Positions 32 to 32,597 of a stretch of 51,154 bases of DNA are shown one piece after another. The position numbers and the translations under genes were made by a program. This DNA is from Escherichia phage damhaus. Numbering within the stretch: position 1 is the first letter of the stretch; each line of letters begins with the position of its first letter. The DNA lies in sequence record NC_049827.1; one strand, written 5' to 3'. Below the pieces are notes generated by a model. It made no database searches. It saw nothing but the letters and a program-made list of their open reading frames with translations, and had not been told where the DNA came from.

Positions 32-448
32 ATGGTTGATGAATTTTTCACTGACGCAGAAATCACGCAGCAAATCGTGAAATTAGCGCCACCGATGAAG
101 CAGATTGATCCAGATTTAATGGTGGCATGGATTGGGCTTGCAAAGGAATTTGTTTGCAAGAAGCGGTTTAAAGAATCATATCCCAAAGCGGTTGCTCTTT
201 ATACGTTGCACCTTATGACGCTTGACGGAGCGATGAAACAGGAAGGGGAAAGCGTAGAGAGTTACTCACGGCGCGTGGCGTCATTTTCCCTGACTGGTGA
301 ATTTAGCCAGACATTTGATCGTGTTTCCAGTGATTCAAGCGGAAAAGAGATCAGGCAAACTCCGTGGGGTAAAATGTATGAAACGTTAAATCGCAAAAAA
401 GGCGGCGGATTTGGTCTTGTGACTGGATTTAGGAGACGTTGCAAATGA
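32..448 (+). CDS. virion structural protein, putative head-tail connector/adaptor
   Basis: 138-aa ORF with GGAGG RBS; first of four short coupled ORFs upstream of the major tail protein gene; function inferred from position. Confidence 0.55.
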
Positions 449-816
449 ACTATAACGAGATCGCAAGAATGGCAACAGAAGGAATTAACTTCTTTAGTGA
501 TGGCAATGGTGAGTTTAAGTGCATAACGCAGCGTGGAAGCGTTGAAATCATCGGAGGCGAAGAAGTAGAAAAGCCAGAGATCAGTGTAATGATTAAGGGT
601 TTAATTCGCTCCCCAAAAGTACGCGAGATTGACGGCGAGACAATACGAGTAACCGATAAGTTGGGAGTTTTTAACAACAAGGTTGAAATTAAGAACGGGT
701 ATCATATTGATGTTGATGGTGAATTATATGTTGTAGTTGAAGCAAGACCAATCAGACAAACCAATGTCACTGTTGCTTATCGGCCTATTTTGAGAAGGAT
801 TTCTGTACATGGCTAA
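445..816 (+). CDS. putative head-tail joining protein
   Basis: ATG at 445 overlaps upstream stop (ATGA) with AGGAG RBS; track start 439 is a TTG; position in neck gene block. Confidence 0.5.
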
Positions 817-1252
817 AAACTACACGATAAGGGAATTTCACGGCAACATTGATGCGTGGATAAACGCCGTTGATAGTGGACTAAAAGATTGCGTGGAGTT
901 ATTCGCCGAAAAAGTACACACAGATTTGGTTAAGCGTTCTCCGGTAGATACTGGTCGTTACCGTGGAAACTGGCAGGTAACAGCAAATAAGCCGCCATTG
1001 TATGCGCTTAACCAGTACGATAAGCACGGCGACAAAACGATCGCGGAAGGTAAGCGAGCTATATACGCAATATTGAGAGGTGGCGGAGCGGTAAGGGCTA
1101 TTTATTTTTCAAATATGCTTATTTACGCTAACGCGCTTGAATACGGTCATTCAAAACAAGCGCCAGCTGGTGTGCTTGGTATTGTTGCCGTGAAGTTGCG
1201 TTCATATATGGCTGAAGCAATAAAAGAGTCGAGGGCTAAAAATGCACTATGA
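809..1252 (+). CDS. putative neck / tail completion protein
   Basis: 147-aa ORF overlapping neighbours, in the block preceding the major tail gene. Confidence 0.5.
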   Translation: MAKNYTIREFHGNIDAWINAVDSGLKDCVELFAEKVHTDLVKRSPVDTGRYRGNWQVTANKPPLYALNQYDKHGDKTIAEGKRAIYAILRGGGAVRAIYFSNMLIYANALEYGHSKQAPAGVLGIVAVKLRSYMAEAIKESRAKNAL

Positions 1253-1640
1253 ATTAATGCTATCGGCGCGTAAGGCGCTGGCGACTGAATACGAGAGCAG
1301 ATTCACGATCGCTTATGAAAACGTAGAGTTTACGCCACCTGGTGACGGTTCGCCGTGGTTGAAGTTTGACTATGCCGAAGTTGACACAGAATACTTGTCA
1401 TTGGATCGAAAATGCGTTTCATATATCGGAATGATTCAGGTTGGCATTGTGTTTCCACCAGGTTACGGAACTGACAGGCCGCGCGCTCTAGCTAAAGAGA
1501 TTGCGCAATTCTTTTACGATGGTAAAATGCTGGAGCATGGTTATATATATGAGGGTGCAAGAGTTCACAAGCCGCTCAAGAGTGAAAGCGGTTGGCTTCT
1601 CCCTATAAGGTTTTATGTTCGAATTGAAACAAAGGAGTAA
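1242..1640 (+). CDS. putative tail terminator-like protein
   Basis: 132-aa ORF immediately upstream of the major tail protein gene; positional inference. Confidence 0.45.
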   Translation: MHYELMLSARKALATEYESRFTIAYENVEFTPPGDGSPWLKFDYAEVDTEYLSLDRKCVSYIGMIQVGIVFPPGYGTDRPRALAKEIAQFFYDGKMLEHGYIYEGARVHKPLKSESGWLLPIRFYVRIETKE

Positions 1641-1645
1641 AAATT

Positions 1646-2308
1646 ATGCATTTACCAAATGGATCGCAAATTTTCGTTGAGAGCAATCGCGGAAGCGCTA
1701 TTGAGGCAACGGCAGTATCAAACGCTAAAGATCCTGTATTCACCGTTGCATCTGGCGGAACTGCGTACAAGAAAGGTGATTATGTTATCATCACTGCGTC
1801 TTCTTGGGGTAAGCTGATTGATCGTGTTATGCGTGTAAAGACTAACGGTGAAGAAACAAGCGTAACTCTTGAGGGTGTTGATACTACCGATCAGAACGTG
1901 TTCCCGACTGGCGGCACTGCATCTTTTGCCAAGATTGATGCATGGACGGAGATCCCTTGCGTTCAGGATTTGTCGCAGGACGGCGGCGAACAGCAATACT
2001 ATACTTATCAGTGTTTGGCAGACGACCAGGAACAGCAGTTACCTACCTATAAGAGCGCCGTTTCTCTGACCTACACTTTTGCGCACGAATACGATAACGC
2101 GATCTATCCGTTACTTCGTGCAGCAGATGAATCAGGCGAAGTGACCGCGCTTCGCATGTATGTACCGAAAGCGAAAGAGATGCGTTGCTGGGCTGGTGTC
2201 CTTTCGTTTAACGAGATCCCACAAACGACCGTTAACGAAATGGAAACTGTTTCCCTGTCTGTATCCCTGAAAGGTCGATTCACCTTCCTACCTTCTCAAG
2301 TAGCATAA
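1646..2308 (+). CDS. major tail protein
   Basis: 220-aa ORF with AAGGAG RBS, followed by a strong terminator and then chaperone and tape measure genes (lambda V-like position). Confidence 0.7.
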   Translation: MHLPNGSQIFVESNRGSAIEATAVSNAKDPVFTVASGGTAYKKGDYVIITASSWGKLIDRVMRVKTNGEETSVTLEGVDTTDQNVFPTGGTASFAKIDAWTEIPCVQDLSQDGGEQQYYTYQCLADDQEQQLPTYKSAVSLTYTFAHEYDNAIYPLLRAADESGEVTALRMYVPKAKEMRCWAGVLSFNEIPQTTVNEMETVSLSVSLKGRFTFLPSQVA

Positions 2309-2313
2309 TCACA

Positions 2314-2337
2314 AGGGGCGTTGCGCCCCTTTTTTTG
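2314..2337 (+). terminator. rho-independent terminator after major tail gene
   Basis: AGGGGCG-TTG-CGCCCCT hairpin followed by a T-run. Confidence 0.7.
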
Positions 2338-2375
2338 TTACTGTACAATCATGCTACACGATTCATAATCAATTC

Positions 2376-2394
2376 TTTTAACAAAAAGTGCTAT
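2376..2394 (-). promoter_or_regulatory. conserved intergenic box, inverted copy (late region)
   Basis: TTTTAACAAAAAGTGCTAT on + strand, reverse complement of the ATAGCACTTTTTGTTAAAA box; lies between a CATAAT hexamer and the chaperone RBS. Confidence 0.6.
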
Positions 2395-2407
2395 CAAGGA
2401 GAAAGAA

Positions 2408-2725
2408 ATGTCAAAAATGAAATTGACGATTGGGCCGCTTCCTGACTTTAAATTACCAGTGAAATTTGCAATGCCTAACGGAGAAGATCAAACAATTATC
2501 TTCACAGTTCGCCACCGCAAAACAAGTGAGATTCACGAGCGATACACGTCAGATACTCCAATGAGCGATGTTGAAATGATCACCTTCCTTGCTTCCGGTT
2601 GGAATCTTGATGATGAATTTAACGAAGAAAATATTAAACAGCTTCTTGATTACTACCCAGCAACAGCAATCGGATTAACTAGCGCATACATGAAAGCGCT
2701 TGCTGGGCAGCGAGTAAAAAACTAA
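2408..2725 (+). CDS. tail assembly chaperone (lambda G-like)
   Basis: 105-aa ORF directly upstream of tape measure gene; ends with slippery A_AAA_AAC before its stop. Confidence 0.7.
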   Translation: MSKMKLTIGPLPDFKLPVKFAMPNGEDQTIIFTVRHRKTSEIHERYTSDTPMSDVEMITFLASGWNLDDEFNEENIKQLLDYYPATAIGLTSAYMKALAGQRVKN

Positions 2726-3036
2726 AAAGGGCGGTTTACCTGTTTTATCAGAAACCGCCGACAGATGCAGAGCTTGAGGCCGTTGGCCTTACAAGGGCAG
2801 ACTATGAAGGAGAAGATCCGCCAGAGGTTATATTTGATGAAAGCATGATGCAATCATGGGATATATTTTGCGCAATGCAAACGCAATGGAGATGTTCTGG
2901 CGGTGGCGCTTACGGATTTGATTATAATGTCTTGCCTATGCTTTTTGAGATTTACAAGGTTGAGGATCGCGAGATGGCGCTAAACGACTTGCGAATCATG
3001 GAGCAAAAAGCACTTGAAATGATGCATTCAAAATAA
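2408..3036 (+). CDS. tail assembly chaperone frameshift fusion product (G-T-like), -1 PRF at 2716-2722
   Basis: -1 frame is open from about 2683 to the stop at 3034-3036; slippery heptamer A_AAA_AAC; 8-bp stem-loop begins about 7 nt downstream (about 2730-2759). Confidence 0.55.
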
Positions 3037-3057
3037 GCGCCTACGGGCGCTTTTTTA
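3036..3057 (+). terminator. rho-independent terminator-like hairpin
   Basis: GCGCC-TAC-GGGCGC hairpin plus T-run between chaperone T-frame stop and tape measure start. Confidence 0.55.
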
Positions 3058-3075
3058 TTACCTGGAGGATTAATA

Positions 3076-5748
3076 ATGTCAGAACAATACGCAGGCTTGA
3101 CGCTTGGGGTTGACGTTTCTCAACTCAACAATGCTGTAAAGTCTTTGCAGCAATTCAAGAAGGCAAACGACGACGCAAAGGGGAGCGTTGAGAGTTTTGT
3201 TGATTCAGAGGTTGTTGCAAGACAAAGAGCCAAACAACTGGCTGAGGAATTGGCAAAGCAGAAGCAAGAATTTAAAGCAATTCAGTCGGCAATAGATCCG
3301 ACAGCAAGCAAAATGGATAAGTTGCGCCAGGCTGCGACACAGCTTGATGCGCTTTGGAAAAAAGGAATTGTTCCTGATGACACATTCTTTGAATTAGGAT
3401 CAATTCTTGAGACGCAGCAAAATAAACTGATCGCAACTAAAAAGGCGCTAACTGAAGAAGGCCGCGCAGCGCTTGAGGAAGCAAAAAATAAGGCAAGAGC
3501 AGAGGCTGAGGCAAGAAAGTTCATTGCGGCATTGCAGGCGCAAGCTGACGCAGCGGAAAAAACAAAATCAGAGCTTGTAGAAATGAGAGCCGCACAACTT
3601 GGAGTTAGTGCAGAGGCCGCGCCATTTATTGCAAAAATGAAGGAGCAGGAAAAACAAGCCTCAAAACTTGGCGTTTCTATGGGGCAGTACAAGCAAGCAA
3701 TGGCGCAATTGCCAATGCAGATTACTGACGTTGTTACTTCTCTTGCTTCAGGTATGCCAGTATGGATGATCGCAATCCAGCAGGGCGGGCAAATCAAGGA
3801 CTCATTTGGCGGTGTTGCTAACACGTTTAAAGCGCTAATGACATTTGTCACGCCTTTAAGTGTAGGAATTACGGCGCTGACTGGTGCTCTTGGTTATGCT
3901 GCATATAATGCATACAAAGCAAATGCACAACTGAAGGAGATCACAAAAACCGTTCAGGAGGCAACTGGTCTTTCTGGTGATTTTGCGGAGCGGATTGCAA
4001 CTGGAATCCAGGCGCTATCTGACAAGACAGGTGAGAGCGCCGATAATCTGGCAAAGGCATACATAAGCACTAAGGATGGAGCAACCGAGGCCATACAAAA
4101 ACTCGTCGATGTTGGGTTTACCTATGACGAAGCAAAGGTAAAGGTAAACGAATACAAGAATGCATCAAGTTTTGTAAGTCTCAACAATGAGATTGCTGAT
4201 CACAAAAACAAGGTTCTTGAGCTTGGCGATTCGTGGTATGAAGTCTTAAAAGCGAAGAATGATTATGCTTCACCGTCCGGCGGGCTGTTGGGGAAAGAGC
4301 TTGGTTATGTAAATCCTATGTTGCAATTTGCGAAGAACACCTATGAGGATATAGGAAAGATCGTAAAAGATGCGAATAAGGATATGGCGGAACGAGCAGC
4401 ACGCATCGACAGAGAAAATCTTTCCTTAAACAGAGTTCGAGCGGCGCAAGAGGCTTTAAACAAAGCCATAGAGGATCAGAAAAATGTAGCAAGGACAGCA
4501 GACGAAGAGTTGAAAAAACGAGCAGCCGAGAACGTGGAGTTCAGGCGAAAAGAGCTTGAAGAGGCGAAGAAGGCGCAGCAGCAAAAGGAAAAAGTTGGTG
4601 GAGTTGTAAAAGCACCAACAGAGAAGCTTGATAAGGAGCTATATGTTCTCAAAGCGCAACTTGAAACACTAAAAGAGCACAGGACTGTAAATGATGTTAT
4701 TTCACGCCAGAGGCAATCTTTGTGGAGCATTGAAAAGCAGATCCAGATCCTAGAGGAAGCGCAAAGCAAACGTAAGCTGACAAAAGCGGAACAGGCGTTA
4801 CTAAACGAGCAAAAAACAGTTCTTGCTATGGCAAAAGAAAAGGCCGAGATAGGCGATCAGATTGTTTTGCAACAGAGAAAGAACAAGCAATACCAGGAAG
4901 GGCTAAAGTTCATTCAGCAAACTTCAGATGCCATTGATGCTATGAACTTGCGACAGTCTGGAGCTACAGATCTGCAAATCCAGCGAGAGCTTGAATTGAA
5001 AAAGTTGCGAACTGATTATGTTGCTGGCGGAGGTAGTATCGACGATGAAATTTATCAGCAGATGGAAGCAAAGCTGAAGGAGTATTACGCCACTGAGGAT
5101 CAGCTAAGAAATAACTGGATTGCAGGAGCAAAAAACGCATGGGAGGTTTACGGACAAGATGCAATGGATATGTACGGAAACGTGCAAGATATTGCAAGCG
5201 AGGCGCTCAACGGTCTAACCAACCAAATGGCTACATTCCTTGCAACAGGCAAGGCAAACTTTAAGAGCTTCGCAACGTCAATCATCCAAATGATTATCCA
5301 GATGATCACGAAGATGGTTATCTTTAATGCCATATCCGGTGCGGTTGGCGGTGACACTTGGACGATTGGAAGCCTTCTTAAAAATGTTGGATTTGCAACT
5401 GGTGGATACACTGGCGACGGCGGGAAGTATGAGCCAGCAGGTGTTGTCCATAAAGGCGAGTTTGTCATGACGAAGGAGGCCACGAAGCGGATCGGAGTTG
5501 GAAATCTTTACAAAATGATGCGCGGTTATGCAAATGGCGGCGTTGTTGGCGGCACTTCATACACTGGCGGCGGAGTTTCATCTGGAGCAACAAATCTTAA
5601 TATTGGCGGGATCAACGTTGATATTAACAACGGAAGCGATCCGAAAGGGTTGGAGACTGGCGTAAAAATGATTTTCACTGATATGATTAAGCGTTCCTGT
5701 ACGCAGGGTGGGGAAGTTTACGAATTTGTTATGTCTAAGCGGGGGTGA
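3076..5748 (+). CDS. tail tape measure protein
   Basis: 890-aa ORF, long coiled-coil-like charged/Ala-rich central region, glycine-rich C-terminal part; follows chaperone frameshift pair. Confidence 0.85.
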
Positions 5749-6101
5749 TAGTGAAACTTGAGCAATTTAAATGGTGTACGCAAACGCAAGGAGGCGGCGG
5801 CACTATGACCACATCAAATAACGACAGGGAAATCTCATTTGGTAATGGTTACACACAGGTTGCGTCAGGAGGGTTTAACACGGTACGCAGGGAGTTTTCC
5901 ATTGTCTATGTTGGCAAGGATTACAGAGACGTTGTTGACTTCCTGAATGGTCACAGGTTGAAGCCGTTTTTATGGTTTATGCCTGACGGTCAACCTGGTC
6001 TATTCAGGGTGAAATCCGGTAGTGTTGGATTAACGCCTGTATCAGCAACCGTTCAGGAAGTGAAAGCAACATTTACTGAGCAATTTACATCAATGCAATA
6101 A
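5745..6101 (+). CDS. minor tail protein (lambda M-like)
   Basis: 118-aa ORF starting at GTG overlapping tape measure stop; position in tail tip block. Confidence 0.6.
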
Positions 6102-6104
6102 TTC

Positions 6105-6129
6105 AAGCCGCCTTTGTGCGGCTTTTTTA
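6105..6129 (+). terminator. rho-independent terminator
   Basis: AGCCGC-loop-GCGGCT hairpin followed by TTTTTT. Confidence 0.65.
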
Positions 6130-6162
6130 TTGATGATACAATGCACGAAAGGAGGTGCAATT

Positions 6163-6924
6163 ATGGCTAATGAAACAACAGGTCGCGCAGATCTTGAAAA
6201 CTGTCTGCAAAGCCTTTACCCTGGCGAGATTATCACGCTAATTGAGATTGACGGTACAAAGTTTGGCGCAAACATTTACCGCATACACAATGAGAATATC
6301 TCATACACTGCGGAAGAATTATTGCAGGCGCGAGAAACTGGAGTTCTTCCGCCGAAAGAGATTACATTCCGTGGCGAGGTTTACGGCGCGCGCCCGTTCG
6401 GAATATCTGGAATCAACTTCACAAGCAACGGAAAGGCTGATAAGCCACAATTGATACTATCAAACCTTGATAGCCAGGTGAGCGCGATGATTCGCAACTT
6501 TAACGGCATGATGCAAGCTAAGGTTACAATCTGGATTACGCCAGCGGAATTAATGGGGAAAGATGGCAGCATTAAAGATGGAGCTTCAAGAAAGCTGGTT
6601 TACTACATTGAGCGCCCAAGCCATTACAATAGGATGATGGCAAAATTTGATCTGACATCGCCTTATGATATGGATGGAATAATGATTCCTCCGAGAATAA
6701 CTCAAAGCGTTTGTTATTGGGCGCAGCGTGGATGGTATCGCAGCGGAAAAGGTTGCGGATACAATGGATCGCGAATGTTTGACAAAGACAACAATCCTGT
6801 AACCGATCCATCTCAAGACTTTTGCGCCGGAACTGTAACCGCGTGCAAACTTCGTTTTGGTGCAGATAAGCAGCTTGATTTTGGAGGTGCACCAGTAGCA
6901 AGCCTGTTAAGGAGAAATCAGTGA
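6163..6924 (+). CDS. minor tail protein (lambda L-like)
   Basis: ATG at 6163 with AGGAGG RBS (track start 6130 is TTG); 253 aa; position between M-like and K-like genes. Confidence 0.6.
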   Translation: MANETTGRADLENCLQSLYPGEIITLIEIDGTKFGANIYRIHNENISYTAEELLQARETGVLPPKEITFRGEVYGARPFGISGINFTSNGKADKPQLILSNLDSQVSAMIRNFNGMMQAKVTIWITPAELMGKDGSIKDGASRKLVYYIERPSHYNRMMAKFDLTSPYDMDGIMIPPRITQSVCYWAQRGWYRSGKGCGYNGSRMFDKDNNPVTDPSQDFCAGTVTACKLRFGADKQLDFGGAPVASLLRRNQ

Positions 6925-7655
6925 TGATTAGTGCAAAAATTAAACTTGAAATAATGCAGCACGTAAAAGATGAATACCCGCGCGAGGCTTGCGGTGTTAT
7001 CACTCAAAAATCACGCGTGCAAAAATACCACCGCATAACCAACGTGCATGATGATCCTGAAAATCATTTTGAGATGGACGCAATTGAATACGTTGAAGCG
7101 TGCGAAAGTGGCGAGCTTATTGCTGTTGTGCATAGCCACACTGGAGACGGGGCAAGTACAATCCCAAGCGCCCATGATACATGCATGTGTGATGAAATGG
7201 GTGTTTCATGGGTTATTGTGTCATGGCCCGAAGGTGATATGAGAATAATTGAGCCTGAATCTCGTCCTCTGATTGGTCGCCCGTGGTCGCTTGGTGCGTA
7301 TGATTGCTGGGGGCTTATTATGGAATGGCACAAGCAACATGGAGTTATCCTGAATGATTTCAGGAAACCATATGAATGGTGGAAGCCTGAGCACGGTGAA
7401 AATCTTTATCAAGAAAATTATCTGAAAGAGGGTTTTGTTGAAACAGGAGAGCCGCCAAAACCTGGTGATATGGTTATCTTTCAGCTTTCCGCGCCAGTGT
7501 GGAATCATGCAGGCATTTATCTTGGCAACAATCAGTTGCTTCATCATGCCTTTGGTAAGTTGTCGAGGGTTGATTTGTATTCTGGATGGTATCAGGAACA
7601 TGCAAAAATGGTTTGTAGACATAAGGATCTGAAATATGACTTTGAAGGTGATTAA
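6924..7655 (+). CDS. tail assembly protein (lambda K-like; MPN/JAMM plus NlpC/P60-like motifs)
   Basis: JAMM-like HSHTGDGASTIPSAHD motif and downstream Cys/His (DCWGL...H) typical of K-family tail proteins. Confidence 0.75.
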   Translation: MISAKIKLEIMQHVKDEYPREACGVITQKSRVQKYHRITNVHDDPENHFEMDAIEYVEACESGELIAVVHSHTGDGASTIPSAHDTCMCDEMGVSWVIVSWPEGDMRIIEPESRPLIGRPWSLGAYDCWGLIMEWHKQHGVILNDFRKPYEWWKPEHGENLYQENYLKEGFVETGEPPKPGDMVIFQLSAPVWNHAGIYLGNNQLLHHAFGKLSRVDLYSGWYQEHAKMVCRHKDLKYDFEGD

Positions 7656-8232
7656 ATTATCTGGATCTTTAGGGCGAAGATTTGGTGTATTTCATAAGAT
7701 GGCTGTTGACTCATACCCTGAAGCAATCCGTGCGCTATCTTCGCAGGTGGAAGGATTCAAGGACTACATGCAAAGCGAAGTAGGATCGCGAATGCGTTAT
7801 GCTGTATTTGTTGACGGTAATAATGTAGGACAGCACGACGAAAAAGCGTGGCAATGCGCAAAGGAAGTGAGGATTATTCCAATCCCAACAGGTTCAAAGT
7901 CTGGCGGGTTGTTTCAGGTTGTTCTTGGCGCGGTTATTATGGCGACTGCATTTTTCACTGGCGGCGCTTCACTTGCGTTGATGGGTGCTTTTGCATCGTC
8001 TGCTTTCATGATGGGTGGAGCCATGGTACTTGGCGGAGTAATGCAAATGATCTCACCTCAGCAAGGAGGATCAAGATTGTCATCCCAATCAGCAGAAAAC
8101 AAGCCGTCTTATGCTTTCGGTGGCGCTGTTAACACAACGGCAGCAGGATACCCAATACCATTGCCATATGGTAAAAGGACCGTCGGCGGAGCTATCTGGT
8201 CGGCTGGCAGCTATGCAGAGGATAAGGCTTAA
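7636..8232 (+). CDS. tail assembly protein (lambda I-like)
   Basis: 198-aa ORF with hydrophobic Gly/Ala-rich C-terminal half, between K-like and J-like genes. Confidence 0.6.
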   Translation: MTLKVIKLSGSLGRRFGVFHKMAVDSYPEAIRALSSQVEGFKDYMQSEVGSRMRYAVFVDGNNVGQHDEKAWQCAKEVRIIPIPTGSKSGGLFQVVLGAVIMATAFFTGGASLALMGAFASSAFMMGGAMVLGGVMQMISPQQGGSRLSSQSAENKPSYAFGGAVNTTAAGYPIPLPYGKRTVGGAIWSAGSYAEDKA

Positions 8233-8240
8233 TATAAAAG

Positions 8241-8267
8241 AGTCGCGCGTTGCGCGGCTTTTTTTTT
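8241..8267 (+). terminator. rho-independent terminator-like hairpin
   Basis: GC-rich imperfect hairpin followed by a T-run of about 9. Confidence 0.5.
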
Positions 8268-8313
8268 GCCCGTATAATTCAACAAATCAAATAGCACAAA
8301 AGGTGAAAAAAGC

Positions 8314-11300
8314 ATGGCTGAAAATATGATAACGGGAAGTAAGGGCGGATCATCAAAACCTTATGTTCCGAAAGAGATGGAAGATAACCTGATCTCAATC
8401 AACAAAATCAAAATCCTTCTTGCCGTTTCCGATGGCGAGTGCGATCCAGATTTTACACTTCGCGATCTGTATCTTGATGATGTTCCGGTAATTGCAGACG
8501 ACGGAACTGTTAACTACAAGGGTGTGAAAGCTGAATTTCGACCTGGAACGCAGACGCAAGATTACATCCAGGGGTTTACTGACACATCAAGCGAAGTGAC
8601 GCTGGCGCGTGACATTACGACGACAAATCCTTATGTAATTTCCGTAACCAACAAAACATTATCGGCTATCAGAATCAAAATGCTAATGCCAACAGGCATT
8701 AAGCAAGAGGATAACGGCGATCTTGTCGGCGTTAAGGTTACTTATGCTGTTGATATGGCTGTTGACGGAGACTCTTACAAAGAAGTATTGCGAGACACTA
8801 TCGAAGGTAAAACGCGTTCAGGTTACGACAGAAGCCGAAGGATTGACCTTCCGGCATTTAATGATCGCGTATTACTTAGGGTTAGAAGGGTTACGGCAGA
8901 CAGCGCATCTTCTCGCGTTACTGATCTGATTAAGCTACAAAGTTACGCTGAGGTTATTGATGCAAAATTCCGTTATCCTCTGACTGGTCTTGTATACGTT
9001 GAATTTGACAGTGAGTTGTTCCCTAACCAGATCCCTAACATTTCAATCAAGAAGAAATGGAAGTTGATTAATGTTCCGAGCAATTACGATCCGGTAATGC
9101 GAGAGTATCACGGTTCATGGAATGGCACGTTCAAGAAAGCGTGGTCGAACAATCCGGCGTGGGTACTTTATGACATTATCACAAACCAGCGATACGGATT
9201 AGATCAGCGAGAGCTTGGTGTGCAGGTTGACAAATGGAGTCTTTACGAAGCGGCTCAATACTGCGATCAGAAAGTGCCGGACGGAAAAGGCGGCACAGAG
9301 CCGCGTTATCTATGCGACGTTGTGATTCAAAGTCAGATTGAGGCTTATCAGCTTATTCGTGATATTTGCTCAATCTTCCGAGGCATGAGCTTTTGGAATG
9401 GAGAGAGCTTGTCAATCGTCATTGATAAGCCGCGCGATCCGTCGTACATCTTCACAAATGACAATGTTGTTGATGGTGATTTTCAGTACACAACAGCAAG
9501 TGAAAAGAGCATGTACACGCAGTGCAACGTGACTTTCGATGACGAACAAAACATGTATCAACAGGACGTAGAGGGTGTATTCGACACAGAGGCCGCATTG
9601 CGCTTTGGATACAATCCTACAAGCATAACCGCGATCGGATGTACACGCAGGAGTGAGGCAAATCGGCGCGGTCGATGGATACTAAAAACCAACTTGCGCA
9701 GCACTACGGTAAACTTTGCTACTGGACTGGAAGGCATGATCCCATCAATAGGTGATGTGATTGCTATTGCTGACAATTTTCACAGCAGCAACCTTAAATT
9801 AAACCTATCAGGGCGCGTGATGGAAGTTTCCGGCTTGCAGGTATTCGTTCCGTTTAAGATTGATGCTAGACCAGGTGATTTCATTATCATCAACAAGCCG
9901 GACGGTAAGCCAGTTAAGCGCACAATCTCAAAGGTAAGCGGTGACGGAAAAACCATTGAGCTAAACATAGGGTTTGGGTTTGAAGTTAAGCCGGATACAG
10001 TTTTTGCAATCGACCGCACTGATATTGCATTGCAGCAATACGTTGTTACGTCTATCAGCAAAGGTGATGATGAGGATGAATTTACATACTCCATCACGGC
10101 TGTTGAATATGATCCTAACAAATACGACGAGATTGATTACGGAGTAAACATTGACGACAGGCCAACTTCAATTGTCCAGCCTGACACGATGGCAGCACCG
10201 GAAAACGTGCAAATATCCTCATACTCGCGAATTGTCCAGGGTGCAAGCGTTGAAACAATGGTTGTGTCGTGGGATAAAGTACCTTACGCATCACTGTATG
10301 AAATGCAATGGCGTAAAGGCGATGGCAACTGGCTGAATACACCACAGACCGCAAACAAAGAAATTGAGGTTGAAGGTATTTATTCAGGAAACTACCAGGT
10401 AAGGGTGAGATCTGTTTCTGCTTCCGGTTCGACTTCGCCGTGGTCCAGAATTGTGACAGCTTCACTGACTGGTAAGGTAGGAGAGCCAGGCGCGCCAGTT
10501 AACTTAACCGCATCCGACAATGAAGTTTTTGGCATTCGTGTTAAGTGGGGGATGCCAGAAGGGAGCGGAGACACGGCATACATTGAGCTTCATCAGTCGC
10601 CGGATGGAACGGCTGAAAACTCAAGCCTGCTAACGCTGATCCCGTATCCACAATATGAATACTGGCATGGAACGCTTCCGGCTGGTCATGTTGTATGGTA
10701 TCGGATCAGGAGCGTAGACAGGATCGGCAACGTTTCCGGTTGGACTGATTTTGTTAGAGGTATGGCTTCAGATGATGTGGAGGCTGTTTTAGGAGATATT
10801 CTTGACAAGATTTTTGATACTGAAGCAGGTCAGGATCTGAAAGAGAACGCCATTGACAGTGCAAACAAGATAAAGGACCAGGCGCAAGCAATCATCCAGA
10901 ATGCTCTTGCTAATGATGCTGATATTAAGTGGACGCGAGTACAAAACGGAAAGAGAAAGGCTGAATATGGTCACGCTCTTGAGCTTATAGCCACAGAGAC
11001 TGAGGCACGAGTTACGCAGATTGAAGAATTGAGGGCGTCAATAGACGAGGATATTGTTTCAAGCATAAAGACAGTGCAGGAGGCTATCGCCACAGAATCT
11101 GAAACGCGAGCAACTCAAATAAACGCTTTGGATTCAAAATTCACAACTGAAATTGACGGCGTAAAACGCGATACAGCAGCAAGCATTAATCAGGTGAATC
11201 AAACAATTGCCAACGAATCTGAAGCGCGAGCGCAGGCCGTTAACGCTCTTGATGCGAAGTTCACAAAGGAGATCGAAGATTTAAACGGAGTTATTAAGAC

Positions 11301-11892
11301 TGAGGTTGAGGCTAACATCTCTGAAGTGAAACAGGCTATCGCTAACGAGACAGAAGCAAGGGTGCAGGCTGACCAGGCGTTAACAGCTAAGTTTGGAGAC
11401 GTTGAATCTGCATTAACTCAAAAACTTGATTCATGGGCTAGTGTGTCGTCTGTTGGAGCTAAATACTCAATGAAATTGGGGTTAACATACAACGGTCAAC
11501 AGTACAGCGCAGGAATGGTAATGCAGCTTTCGCAGAGTTCATCCGGCCTTATCTCGCAGATTTTGTTTGATGCGAACAGGTTCGCCATCATGACAAGTTC
11601 GACTGGCGGGGTGTATACGCTGCCTTTCGTGGTGGAAAATAACCAGGTATTCATTAACAGCCTGTTAGTGAAAAACGGTTCAATCACCAATGCGATGATC
11701 GGTAATTATATTCAGTCGAATAACTTTGTTGCCAACTCGACGGGGTGGAGGCTGGATAAAAACGGCAGATTTGAGAACTACGGTTCGACTTCTGGAGAAG
11801 GGGCCATGAAGTTGACCAATGAAACAATAAGTGTGCGAGACGCAAACGGGCGCTTGCGTGTTCAGATTGGTAGGCTTACTGGTACGTGGTAA
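8314..11892 (+). CDS. central tail fiber / host specificity protein (lambda J-like)
   Basis: 1192-aa ORF after I-like gene; fibronectin-III-like segment; C-terminal tandem repeats of about 33 aa. Confidence 0.85.
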   Translation: MAENMITGSKGGSSKPYVPKEMEDNLISINKIKILLAVSDGECDPDFTLRDLYLDDVPVIADDGTVNYKGVKAEFRPGTQTQDYIQGFTDTSSEVTLARDITTTNPYVISVTNKTLSAIRIKMLMPTGIKQEDNGDLVGVKVTYAVDMAVDGDSYKEVLRDTIEGKTRSGYDRSRRIDLPAFNDRVLLRVRRVTADSASSRVTDLIKLQSYAEVIDAKFRYPLTGLVYVEFDSELFPNQIPNISIKKKWKLINVPSNYDPVMREYHGSWNGTFKKAWSNNPAWVLYDIITNQRYGLDQRELGVQVDKWSLYEAAQYCDQKVPDGKGGTEPRYLCDVVIQSQIEAYQLIRDICSIFRGMSFWNGESLSIVIDKPRDPSYIFTNDNVVDGDFQYTTASEKSMYTQCNVTFDDEQNMYQQDVEGVFDTEAALRFGYNPTSITAIGCTRRSEANRRGRWILKTNLRSTTVNFATGLEGMIPSIGDVIAIADNFHSSNLKLNLSGRVMEVSGLQVFVPFKIDARPGDFIIINKPDGKPVKRTISKVSGDGKTIELNIGFGFEVKPDTVFAIDRTDIALQQYVVTSISKGDDEDEFTYSITAVEYDPNKYDEIDYGVNIDDRPTSIVQPDTMAAPENVQISSYSRIVQGASVETMVVSWDKVPYASLYEMQWRKGDGNWLNTPQTANKEIEVEGIYSGNYQVRVRSVSASGSTSPWSRIVTASLTGKVGEPGAPVNLTASDNEVFGIRVKWGMPEGSGDTAYIELHQSPDGTAENSSLLTLIPYPQYEYWHGTLPAGHVVWYRIRSVDRIGNVSGWTDFVRGMASDDVEAVLGDILDKIFDTEAGQDLKENAIDSANKIKDQAQAIIQNALANDADIKWTRVQNGKRKAEYGHALELIATETEARVTQIEELRASIDEDIVSSIKTVQEAIATESETRATQINALDSKFTTEIDGVKRDTAASINQVNQTIANESEARAQAVNALDAKFTKEIEDLNGVIKTEVEANISEVKQAIANETEARVQADQALTAKFGDVESALTQKLDSWASVSSVGAKYSMKLGLTYNGQQYSAGMVMQLSQSSSGLISQILFDANRFAIMTSSTGGVYTLPFVVENNQVFINSLLVKNGSITNAMIGNYIQSNNFVANSTGWRLDKNGRFENYGSTSGEGAMKLTNETISVRDANGRLRVQIGRLTGTW

Positions 11893-31636: not shown

Positions 31637-31658
31637 CTTTTAACAAAAAGTGCTATTT
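31637..31658 (-). promoter_or_regulatory. conserved intergenic box copy
   Basis: minus strand AAATAGCACTTTTTGTTAAAA overlapping the TAG stop of the methyltransferase gene; followed by GCCAGG...CCTGGC hairpin and CATAAT. Confidence 0.7.
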
Positions 31659-32363
31659 TGCGTTAGCTTCAAAGACTGCGCGTGCAAAACCGCGCGGGGT
31701 GAGAGAGCGGATCATCTTTGTGCGAGATGATTTTCCGCCAGTTTTGGCCCAGCCTGGATTATCTTTATCGTCCTCTTTCGGCAGTATTAAAGCGCGCGGA
31801 GGAATAACAAAGCCGTTGCCAGTCCAAAGACATGTTTTCTTAAAGTAGCGATCCCGCGCAGGAATAATATCAGGGAAGTCGGGATGTTTATCATCTTCCG
31901 GCAGATAGCCAGCGTAATCGCACGGATGGAACGTATAATCAGGCTTACGCCATAACGTTGACAGCTTGCCTACAGGATTCTCTATCATGTAAGGAACACC
32001 GAAATAATCAGCGATATGCGCCGCTATTTTGCAAGTGTCGGCGGCTTCATCCTGGAATTTTGGATTATCAATTCTCTTTTTAGCCCAATGGCGAGATCCG
32101 CTATTTGCAAGGTCAGTGCATGGAGGGAACGCCATAATAAAATCAGGCTTACCCCAATTTTCAAGTTTTGCGGTATATTTGAATAGATCATCAATCCACA
32201 CATTAACGTAAAAAATATTATCGTGGATTATGCGCACTGAGTGGTAATCACCGTGATCTGCATCATCGTAATTAAAGCAAATGCATTTATATCCAGCATT
32301 AGCCCAATCTTTAACGGCTTTACCAGATCCATCAAACAAAGAGAAAATTAAACCCTTATACAT
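31653..32363 (-). CDS. putative DNA (cytosine-5)-methyltransferase-like protein (short, orphan)
   Basis: 236 aa with FDGSG (motif I-like), PPC (motif IV-like PC dipeptide) and IENP (ENV-like); GAGGTGA RBS. Confidence 0.5.
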   Translation of the reverse strand: MYKGLIFSLFDGSGKAVKDWANAGYKCICFNYDDADHGDYHSVRIIHDNIFYVNVWIDDLFKYTAKLENWGKPDFIMAFPPCTDLANSGSRHWAKKRIDNPKFQDEAADTCKIAAHIADYFGVPYMIENPVGKLSTLWRKPDYTFHPCDYAGYLPEDDKHPDFPDIIPARDRYFKKTCLWTGNGFVIPPRALILPKEDDKDNPGWAKTGGKSSRTKMIRSLTPRGFARAVFEANAK

Positions 32364-32372
32364 TTCATCACC

Positions 32373-32597
32373 TCAAAACGGAAAGCATCGCGGGCAGTTA
32401 GGATCGAAGTTGCAGCCGCAATCATTGACAATCATTGTTGGATCTGCAAATGCAGCGCCGCATTCATGGTCCATATCCATTTCACCCAACGCATCATCAA
32501 GCGTCCTGATTTTATATGCGACTTCAAGCGCGGCCTCTTTATTCAGTCCGGCATCTTCTGCTTTTTGCAGTCGCTCAAAAAATCCGTCCTGACTCAT
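32373..32597 (-). CDS. small Cys-rich protein (possible zinc-binding)
   Basis: 74 aa; C-terminal HECG...CGCNFDPNCPRC cluster; AAGGAG RBS. Confidence 0.55.
   Translation of the reverse strand: MSQDGFFERLQKAEDAGLNKEAALEVAYKIRTLDDALGEMDMDHECGAAFADPTMIVNDCGCNFDPNCPRCFPF

Follow-up and report, generated by a model that had tools for sequence, protein, structure and literature searches.

A predicted lambda G/GT-type -1 ribosomal frameshift at the end of the tail assembly chaperone gene of Escherichia phage damhaus

Directly between the tail tube and tape measure genes of Escherichia phage damhaus lies a pair of overlapping open reading frames (2408-2725 and 2683-3036). The question raised by this locus is how the second frame is translated. 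A first-pass annotation had proposed a programmed -1 ribosomal frameshift of the G/GT type that is conserved upstream of tape measure genes. The proposal was followed up by computational analysis of the window, i.e. the whole 51,154-nucleotide stretch of sequence record NC_049827.1. Judged from the sequence, this T1-like siphovirus very probably uses the junction at 2716-2722 for a programmed -1 ribosomal frameshift of the lambda G/GT type in its tail assembly chaperone gene. Synteny, domain content and the position and register of the heptamer all fit what had been proposed, as do its conservation at synonymous positions and the change of the selected frame. The anatomy of the junction, its homology, its conservation and the frame switch of selection are documented for damhaus in the following.

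Genome context and the two reading frames

When 801 bases around the chaperone junction were compared, damhaus was 99.6% identical to Escherichia phage egaa, and about 25 further records showed at least 99% identity. Taxonomy was read for the close records JLBYU09, G29-2 and KarlJaspers, which belong to the Drexlerviridae, subfamily Tempevirinae, genus Hanrivervirus. Judged by its identity to these Hanrivervirus records, the damhaus window is the genome of a T1-like virulent siphovirus of E. coli/Shigella. The region 2300-3100 was also matched by about 20 GenBank entries that go by the name 'Campylobacter phage' (host Campylobacter jejuni); this looks like a case of misassigned hosts or contaminating coliphages.

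The left end of the window carries a lambda-like tail module which, according to the ORF list and Pfam, is encoded on the + strand throughout. Its gene order is tube protein, tail assembly chaperone, -1 ORF, tape measure protein, M-like protein and L-like protein (Table 1). A terminator scan placed one strong terminator-like hairpin on either side of the chaperone ORFs, and in T1, G29-2, Sushi and Sazh a rho-independent terminator is annotated at each of the two equivalent sites. The presence of this flanking pair suggests a conserved transcriptional attenuation that may step expression down along the tail operon.

Table 1. Sequence features at and around the chaperone junction of phage damhaus (positions in the window).
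Feature	Position	Strand	Basis or remarks
Tail tube protein	1646-2308	+	Pfam Phage_tail_3, 1.7e-64
Terminator-like hairpin, T tract	2313-2331	+	Terminator scan; between tail tube and chaperone genes
Short tail assembly chaperone, G-like, frame-0 ORF, 105 aa	2408-2725	+	ORF list, Phage_TAC_4, PHROG
Slippery heptamer A_AAA_AAC	2716-2722	+	Sequence; X_XXY_YYZ register; P-site AAA Lys, A-site AAC Asn
-1 frame extension, T-like, 104 codons and stop	2722-3036	+	Open frame, DUF1799, PHROG 680
Frame-0 stop TAA, abutting 3' end of heptamer	2723-2725	+	Sequence
RNA hairpin	2730-2759	+	8 bp, 2-nt bulge, 3 bp, 6-nt loop; MFE -15.1 kcal/mol
Terminator-like hairpin, T tract	3035-3052	+	Terminator scan; between end of -1 ORF and tape measure gene
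Tape measure protein	3076-5748	+	TMP_2 and Tape_meas_lam_C
M-like protein	5745-6101	+	Phage_min_tail
L-like protein	6130-6924	+	Phage_tail_L

The 105-aa product of the frame-0 ORF matches Pfam family Phage_TAC_4 (PF08748) over its full length (E=1.8e-31; 109.3 bits at a gathering threshold of 21.1), and also PHROG 569 and PHROG 17368. Its 3' end reads CGA GTA AAA AAC TAA, in agreement with the GTA AAA AAC TAA ending given in the first-pass annotation, and the canonical slippery sequence claimed there is indeed present in the X_XXY_YYZ register. The boundaries given for the -1 frame were likewise correct: a TAG (2680-2682) precedes it, and from 2683 onwards it stays open until the TAA at 3034-3036. 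Frame 0 and frame -1 overlap by 43 nt (14 codons). The -1 frame is devoid of ATG, GTG and TTG codons between 2683 and 2844. The first of these codons is the ATG at 2845, which corresponds to residue 42 of the extension and would open a 63-aa ORF (2845-3036), the 'track ORF' of the earlier description.

Residues 22-101 of the extension match Pfam family DUF1799 (PF08809; E=6.8e-13, 49.1 bits, gathering threshold 26), and the match to PHROG 680 begins at extension residue 9. Homology to these two families thus begins 20-33 codons upstream of ATG 2845. In PHROG 17368 (213 positions), positions 1-107 match the upstream ORF and positions 109-211 match the extension. As this one family covers both halves, fused proteins of such architecture are already contained in annotated phage genomes. 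By these features of its sequence, the T-like extension is taken to be reached by frameshifting only. A tandem slip would yield a product of 105 + 104 = 209 aa, the length that had been predicted for the fusion. The Pfam search returned Phage_TAC_4 and DUF1799 only; there was no match to the lambda gpG and gpT families at E<=0.01. A sequence search of the PDB with the fusion gave chance matches only (E about 0.4), and a single-sequence structure model of the fusion (pLDDT 42.6) was too poor for fold comparison.

Within the 43-nt overlap, A_AAA_AAC at 2716-2722 is the only in-frame X_XXY_YYZ motif. In the ORFs of the window such motifs occur in frame at 0.0029 per codon, which gives an expectation of about 0.04 per 14-codon overlap. 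The string AAAAAAC as such is not rare (18 copies in the window vs 21.5 expected). Among 47 in-frame heptamers, the one at 2716-2722 has by far the longest -1 continuation (104 codons) and lies zero codons before the stop; the runner-up, with 50 codons, lies in a spurious antisense ORF. A second in-frame heptamer near the end of an ORF, AAAAAAT at 32577-32583 (+), is located two codons before the end of a 103-aa ORF and would give a 43-codon -1 extension. This candidate was rejected because the + strand ORF is spurious, being antisense to real - strand genes (31653-32363 and 32373-32597). No SD-like stimulator was found upstream of the chaperone heptamer, the best anti-SD duplex in 2690-2715 having -2.8 kcal/mol, at the 35th percentile of background.

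Conservation of the junction in phages and prophages

With the predicted 209-aa fusion as query, tblastn matched 1154 phage records. Among the matches listed, 57 of 60 consisted of two pieces in two frames. From GenBank phage records and IMG/VR, 100 loci were gathered, which comprised 74 non-identical junctions and 70 once four error-prone ones had been removed; as the junctions of relatives are phylogenetically related, counts among them do not represent independent events. Four IMG/VR sequences (L020:905, L025:909, L057:906 and L058:905) have A5 in place of A6, which would put the T frame in +1. Their interpretation as a +1 variant was rejected, as three of the four carry more indels or a deletion in the same stretch, and they probably reflect homopolymer sequencing or assembly errors. 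In L025, the end of the T ORF is fused to the start of the tape measure gene.

The heptamer is well conserved in relatives. A_AAA_AAC followed by a stop codon (51 TAA, 2 TGA) was found at 53 of the 70 junctions, including those of T1 (L064/L100), TLS, Rtp-like phages and one Dhillonvirus; in the latter the two frames overlap by only 10 nt. Slippery or Lys-slip variants occupy the same position in the rest: (i) A_AAG_GTC in five junctions (Rogunavirus); (ii) A_AAA_GTY or A_AAA_GCC in nine (Webervirus); (iii) A_AAG_GGT in one; (iv) G_GGA_AAC in two. Such a motif adjoins a stop codon in all 70 non-identical phage junctions, and this frame-0 stop is located at identical alignment columns throughout (70/70; A2 columns 31-33). 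The A-AAA and A-AAG variants retain a Lys codon with an A before it, and tetramers of this kind form the most shift-prone class reported in E. coli (PMC4066793). More distant homologues (25-40% identity) were found in 31 prophages (L102-L130 among the loci) of Pseudomonas, Burkholderiales, Neisseria, Gilliamella and others. There a stop codon lies directly 3' of G_GGA_AAC in 16 cases and of A_AAA_AAC in four (in total 20/31).

Variability along the alignment was determined as entropy per codon position. Upstream of the heptamer, the three frame-0 codon positions had 0.56/0.39/1.76 bits; downstream, the three positions of the -1 frame had 0.68/0.63/1.38 bits. Since third positions are the most variable ones in frame 0 upstream and in frame -1 downstream, the selected frame switches at the site. 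The stretch 2728-2785 contains no start codon, yet it displays the codon-position pattern of a translated -1 frame. Within the heptamer, the frame-0 third positions had 0.19, 0.42 and 0.47 bits vs 1.76 for those just upstream. AAA is invariably preceded by an A, though the codon to which this base belongs may be GTA, GCA, GAA or ACA. In terms of sequence evolution, this combination of synonymous-site conservation and frame switch is the signature to be expected for a functional shift site, and it would not arise from a pair of independently translated genes.

Two other explanations for the second frame have to be weighed against these data. Both frames might be independent genes, with a 63-aa protein made from ATG 2845 and the heptamer being incidental. 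Separate CDSs are annotated accordingly in JLBYU09, KarlJaspers, T1 and many other records, and AAAAAAC is, as mentioned, not rare in the genome. This explanation is nevertheless very unlikely: DUF1799 and PHROG 680 homology starts well before the presumed start codon, the start-less stretch behind the heptamer has the pattern of a translated -1 frame, and the heptamer is kept at synonymous sites. Moreover, the SD of ATG 2845 would be poorly placed (the nearest GAGG, 2824-2827, is 17 nt away), and the annotated starts of the downstream ORF are at inconsistent positions in relatives. Alternatively, RNA polymerase might add one A within the A6 run (2716-2721), so that the fusion is encoded in a single frame. 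The homopolymer is at the right place for such transcriptional slippage, and the product, ...VKKLKR..., would be that of a ribosomal slip in the P site only. Efficient slippage of bacterial RNA polymerase, however, as a rule requires runs of at least about 8-9 bases. Even a homopolymer run of six is missing in the homologues that have A_AAG_GTC, A_AAG_GGT or G_GGA_AAC; a single common mechanism therefore has to be ribosomal, which leaves transcriptional slippage extremely improbable.

In GenBank, the two frames appear as separate CDSs in most of the close records, the T1 reference among them, and the close Hanrivervirus records as well as the T1 reference are without a join annotation. In most GenBank and RefSeq entries of Hanrivervirus and in the T1 reference genome, the downstream half is listed as a separate short 'hypothetical' or 'tape measure' protein, and the predicted 209-aa fusion is missed. 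The missing join is an annotation gap and not a discovery, the frameshift being already known for the T1-like family. In RefSeq records such as NC_049852, NC_049824 and NC_005833, the chaperone and the short downstream ORF are both named 'tail length tape measure protein'. This double naming is a misnomer which stems from PHROG-based naming; PHROGs 569, 680 and 17368 bear the same label. In phage vB_EcoS_G29-2, an AGG-to-ATG change just past the stop codon (L002:1929-1931, equivalent to 2728-2730 of the window) creates an in-frame -1 start. A separate 102-aa CDS is annotated from this new ATG in the record of that phage, and the start is absent from all other relatives.

The downstream hairpin and the adjoining stop codon

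In addition to the heptamer, the first-pass annotation had described a stem-loop at about 2730-2759 that begins 7 nt downstream. In damhaus this part of the claim holds: the structure is present and non-random. Its outer helix is formed by GGCGGTTT / GGCGGUUU (2730-2737) pairing with AAACCGCC (2752-2759), its inner helix by CUG 2740-2742 pairing with CAG 2749-2751, and the spacer between heptamer and stem is UAAAAAG (7 nt). In stability the hairpin exceeds 197 of 200 dinucleotide shuffles (z=-2.65) and each one of 1000 sequences in which the peptide of the -1 frame was recoded synonymously, with codons drawn from the phage's own usage. Among the 45-nt windows of the genome, the region belongs to the lowest 1.5% by stability. 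Inspection by eye of 2760-2830 did not reveal a pseudoknot partner for the loop (CAGGU, AUAAAA).

As a general component of the signal, the stem-loop fared less well, being absent from some relatives that have the same heptamer. A hairpin beyond the expectation from recoding (p<=0.05) was found at 49 of the 70 junctions; 21 of 70 (about 30%) are without one, including most Rogunavirus and Rtp-like junctions. Damhaus, T1, TLS and many others share this helix, some of them in a slightly longer form extended by GC pairs, and in them it beats recoding. In loci L026 and L027, the peptide LKRAVYLFYQKPPTDAE and the heptamer are identical, and synonymous changes destroy the stem. Helix pairing in the alignment amounts to 78.8% vs 75.3% in shuffles and reflects mainly the sequence conservation of the coding region. 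The covariation score of the exact helix was 0.131 vs 0.139 in a control slid by -1, other lineages using other registers.

It is conceivable that the frameshift is real and the hairpin is not its stimulator. In that case the heptamer and the adjoining stop would drive the slip, with an incidental hairpin or one that has some other function, e.g. in mRNA stability. The junctions that lack a hairpin, L026 and L027 among them, and the covariation score that does not exceed its slide control are in line with this possibility, as is the position of the stop, which is invariant by contrast. In addition, the lambda G/GT site and the IS site A_AAA_AAC work without an established stimulator (PMC4066793). 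Against it speaks that the damhaus hairpin surpasses every synonymous recoding and that hairpins with differing arms are located at similar distance in at least four lineages (T1/TLS/Hanrivervirus, Webervirus, Dhillonvirus EE09 with GGCGGCG/CGCCGCC, and Pseudomonas phage YMC11). The 7-nt spacer is also within the range of known -1 signals. We regard a hairpin without stimulatory role as possible, though on balance unlikely. Still another function might be that of an intrinsic terminator on the minus strand, where GGCGGTTT...AAACCGCC is followed by the T-rich tract CTTTTTAGTTTTTT. Such a terminator was, however, not called by the terminator scan, and its loop would be 14 nt long without the inner pairs. 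Because the long ORFs with a family match from 32 to 11892 are all on the + strand, there is no convergent transcript to stop. Furthermore, heptamer and A-rich spacer, read on the opposite strand, already account for the T tract, and the spacer is variable in relatives. The terminator explanation is given almost no credence. In the damhaus lineage, the hairpin is probably a real, selected and stimulatory element of the frameshift signal. As about 30% of relatives do without one, it probably acts as an accessory stimulator that is not required by the chaperone family.

Of the two neighbours of the heptamer, the abutting stop codon is conserved more universally; it had not been flagged as part of the signal by the first-pass annotation. 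The frame-0 stop, conserved more than the hairpin, may belong to the signal. An abutting stop codon could add a pause (a 'shifty stop'). As the frame-0 stop is fixed 3' of X_XXA_AAC from T1-like phages to prophages of Pseudomonas, Burkholderiales and Neisseria, frameshifting might be termination-coupled in the whole chaperone family, the pause being supplied by slow release-factor recognition and not by RNA structure. We consider this generalization tentative and unlikely. If true, the G:GT ratio would be set by the RF1/RF2 activity of the host, and the hairpin would be a lineage-specific add-on.

Proposed translation of the junction and comparison with known systems

From the features described above we infer the slippage itself, its efficiency, the roles of stop codon and hairpin, and the function of both proteins. 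According to the preferred model of a programmed -1 ribosomal frameshift, most ribosomes would translate 2408-2725 and terminate at the TAA to release the 105-aa chaperone. A minority would move one base back on A_AAA_AAC and make the 209-aa fusion, whose C-terminal half is the T-like DUF1799 part. In a tandem slip, the tRNA-Lys on AAA (2717-2719) and the tRNA-Asn on AAC (2720-2722) would re-pair one base back with AAA AAA. Decoding would then resume at CUA (2722-2724) and continue through CTA AAA AGG... to 3036, which gives the junction ...VKNLKR.... Alternatively, tRNA-Lys alone could slip before AAC is decoded, with ...VKKLKR... as the result. Pausing would likely be brought about by the abutting frame-0 stop (2723-2725), a presumed pause element, and by the hairpin located 7 nt behind the heptamer.

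In lambda, binding to the tape measure protein is the task of the G part and recruitment of the tube protein that of the T part, and a low fusion-to-chaperone ratio of about 1:30 is needed (PMC5009743). By analogy, the damhaus proteins would coat or bind the tape measure protein through their shared N-terminal (G) part, and the T part would bring in the tail tube protein. As an A-site codon, AAC is one of those less prone to shifting in E. coli, heterogeneous ones being weaker than AAG or AAA (PMC4066793). A weak A-site codon therefore fits a low fusion-to-chaperone ratio. An experimental demonstration of the fusion protein in any T1-like phage was not found in the literature searched. The damhaus site does not open a new question on phage biology. 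It is a clean, family-wide case of an X_XXA_AAC heptamer abutting a stop codon, and offers a convenient natural system with regard to the adjoining stop or the hairpin as the element that sets a low frameshift ratio in E. coli.

The lambda G/GT frameshift is reportedly the subject of work by Levin, Hendrix and Casjens (1993) and by Xu, Hendrix and Duda (2004, 2013, 2014); this programmed -1 frameshift was demonstrated first in lambda and then extended to long-tailed phages in general, among which it is conserved, as has been reviewed (PMC5009743). Damhaus resembles lambda in the position of the gene between those for the major tail protein and the tape measure protein. Further similarities are a short frame-0 chaperone ORF with an X_XXY_YYZ heptamer close to its 3' end, from where it is continued in the -1 frame, a downstream ORF without a start of its own, and the low level of fusion that would be expected. 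The two systems differ in the heptamer (A_AAA_AAC in damhaus vs G_GGA_AAG in lambda), in the stop that abuts it and in the downstream hairpin present in damhaus. In addition, the damhaus proteins belong to Phage_TAC_4 and DUF1799, the definition of the G/GT family resting on synteny and not on homology, and the damhaus fusion is a predicted product.

Closer counterparts are found in TLS (tfmA/tfmS, AY308796), Klebsiella phage Sushi, Citrobacter phages Sazh and Stevie, and E. coli phage U136B. They are homologous to damhaus with 47-73% amino acid identity over the fusion and do not differ from it in anything substantive. In TLS and Sazh, both the junction (A_AAA_AAC+TAA) and the hairpin are those of damhaus, whereas Sushi and other Webervirus phages carry A_AAA_GTT, which is not a full heptamer. 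A joined -1 product is annotated in TLS, Sushi and Sazh (638, 641 and 632 nt, respectively); one additional base makes each length a multiple of three. In print, the chaperone frameshift of T1-like phages is described for Stevie and U136B and hypothesised for Rogue1 (PMC4319613, PMC8104045, PMC3496638).

A_AAA_AAC is a proven -1 site in the E. coli IS cluster A_AAA_AAC_1, where it lacks an established stimulator (PMC4066793). The IS and damhaus sites share the heptamer and the ribosomes of the host; they differ in context and product, a transposase being made in the IS elements, and the IS site is not stop-adjacent in the same way. We take this cluster to be IS1 insA/insB'. In E. coli dnaX (A_AAA_AAG with an upstream SD and a stem-loop), an A-rich Lys heptamer is likewise followed by a hairpin a few nucleotides downstream. 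The damhaus site differs by AAC (Asn) in place of AAG in the A site and by the absence of an SD-like element, and a far lower efficiency than that of dnaX would be expected.
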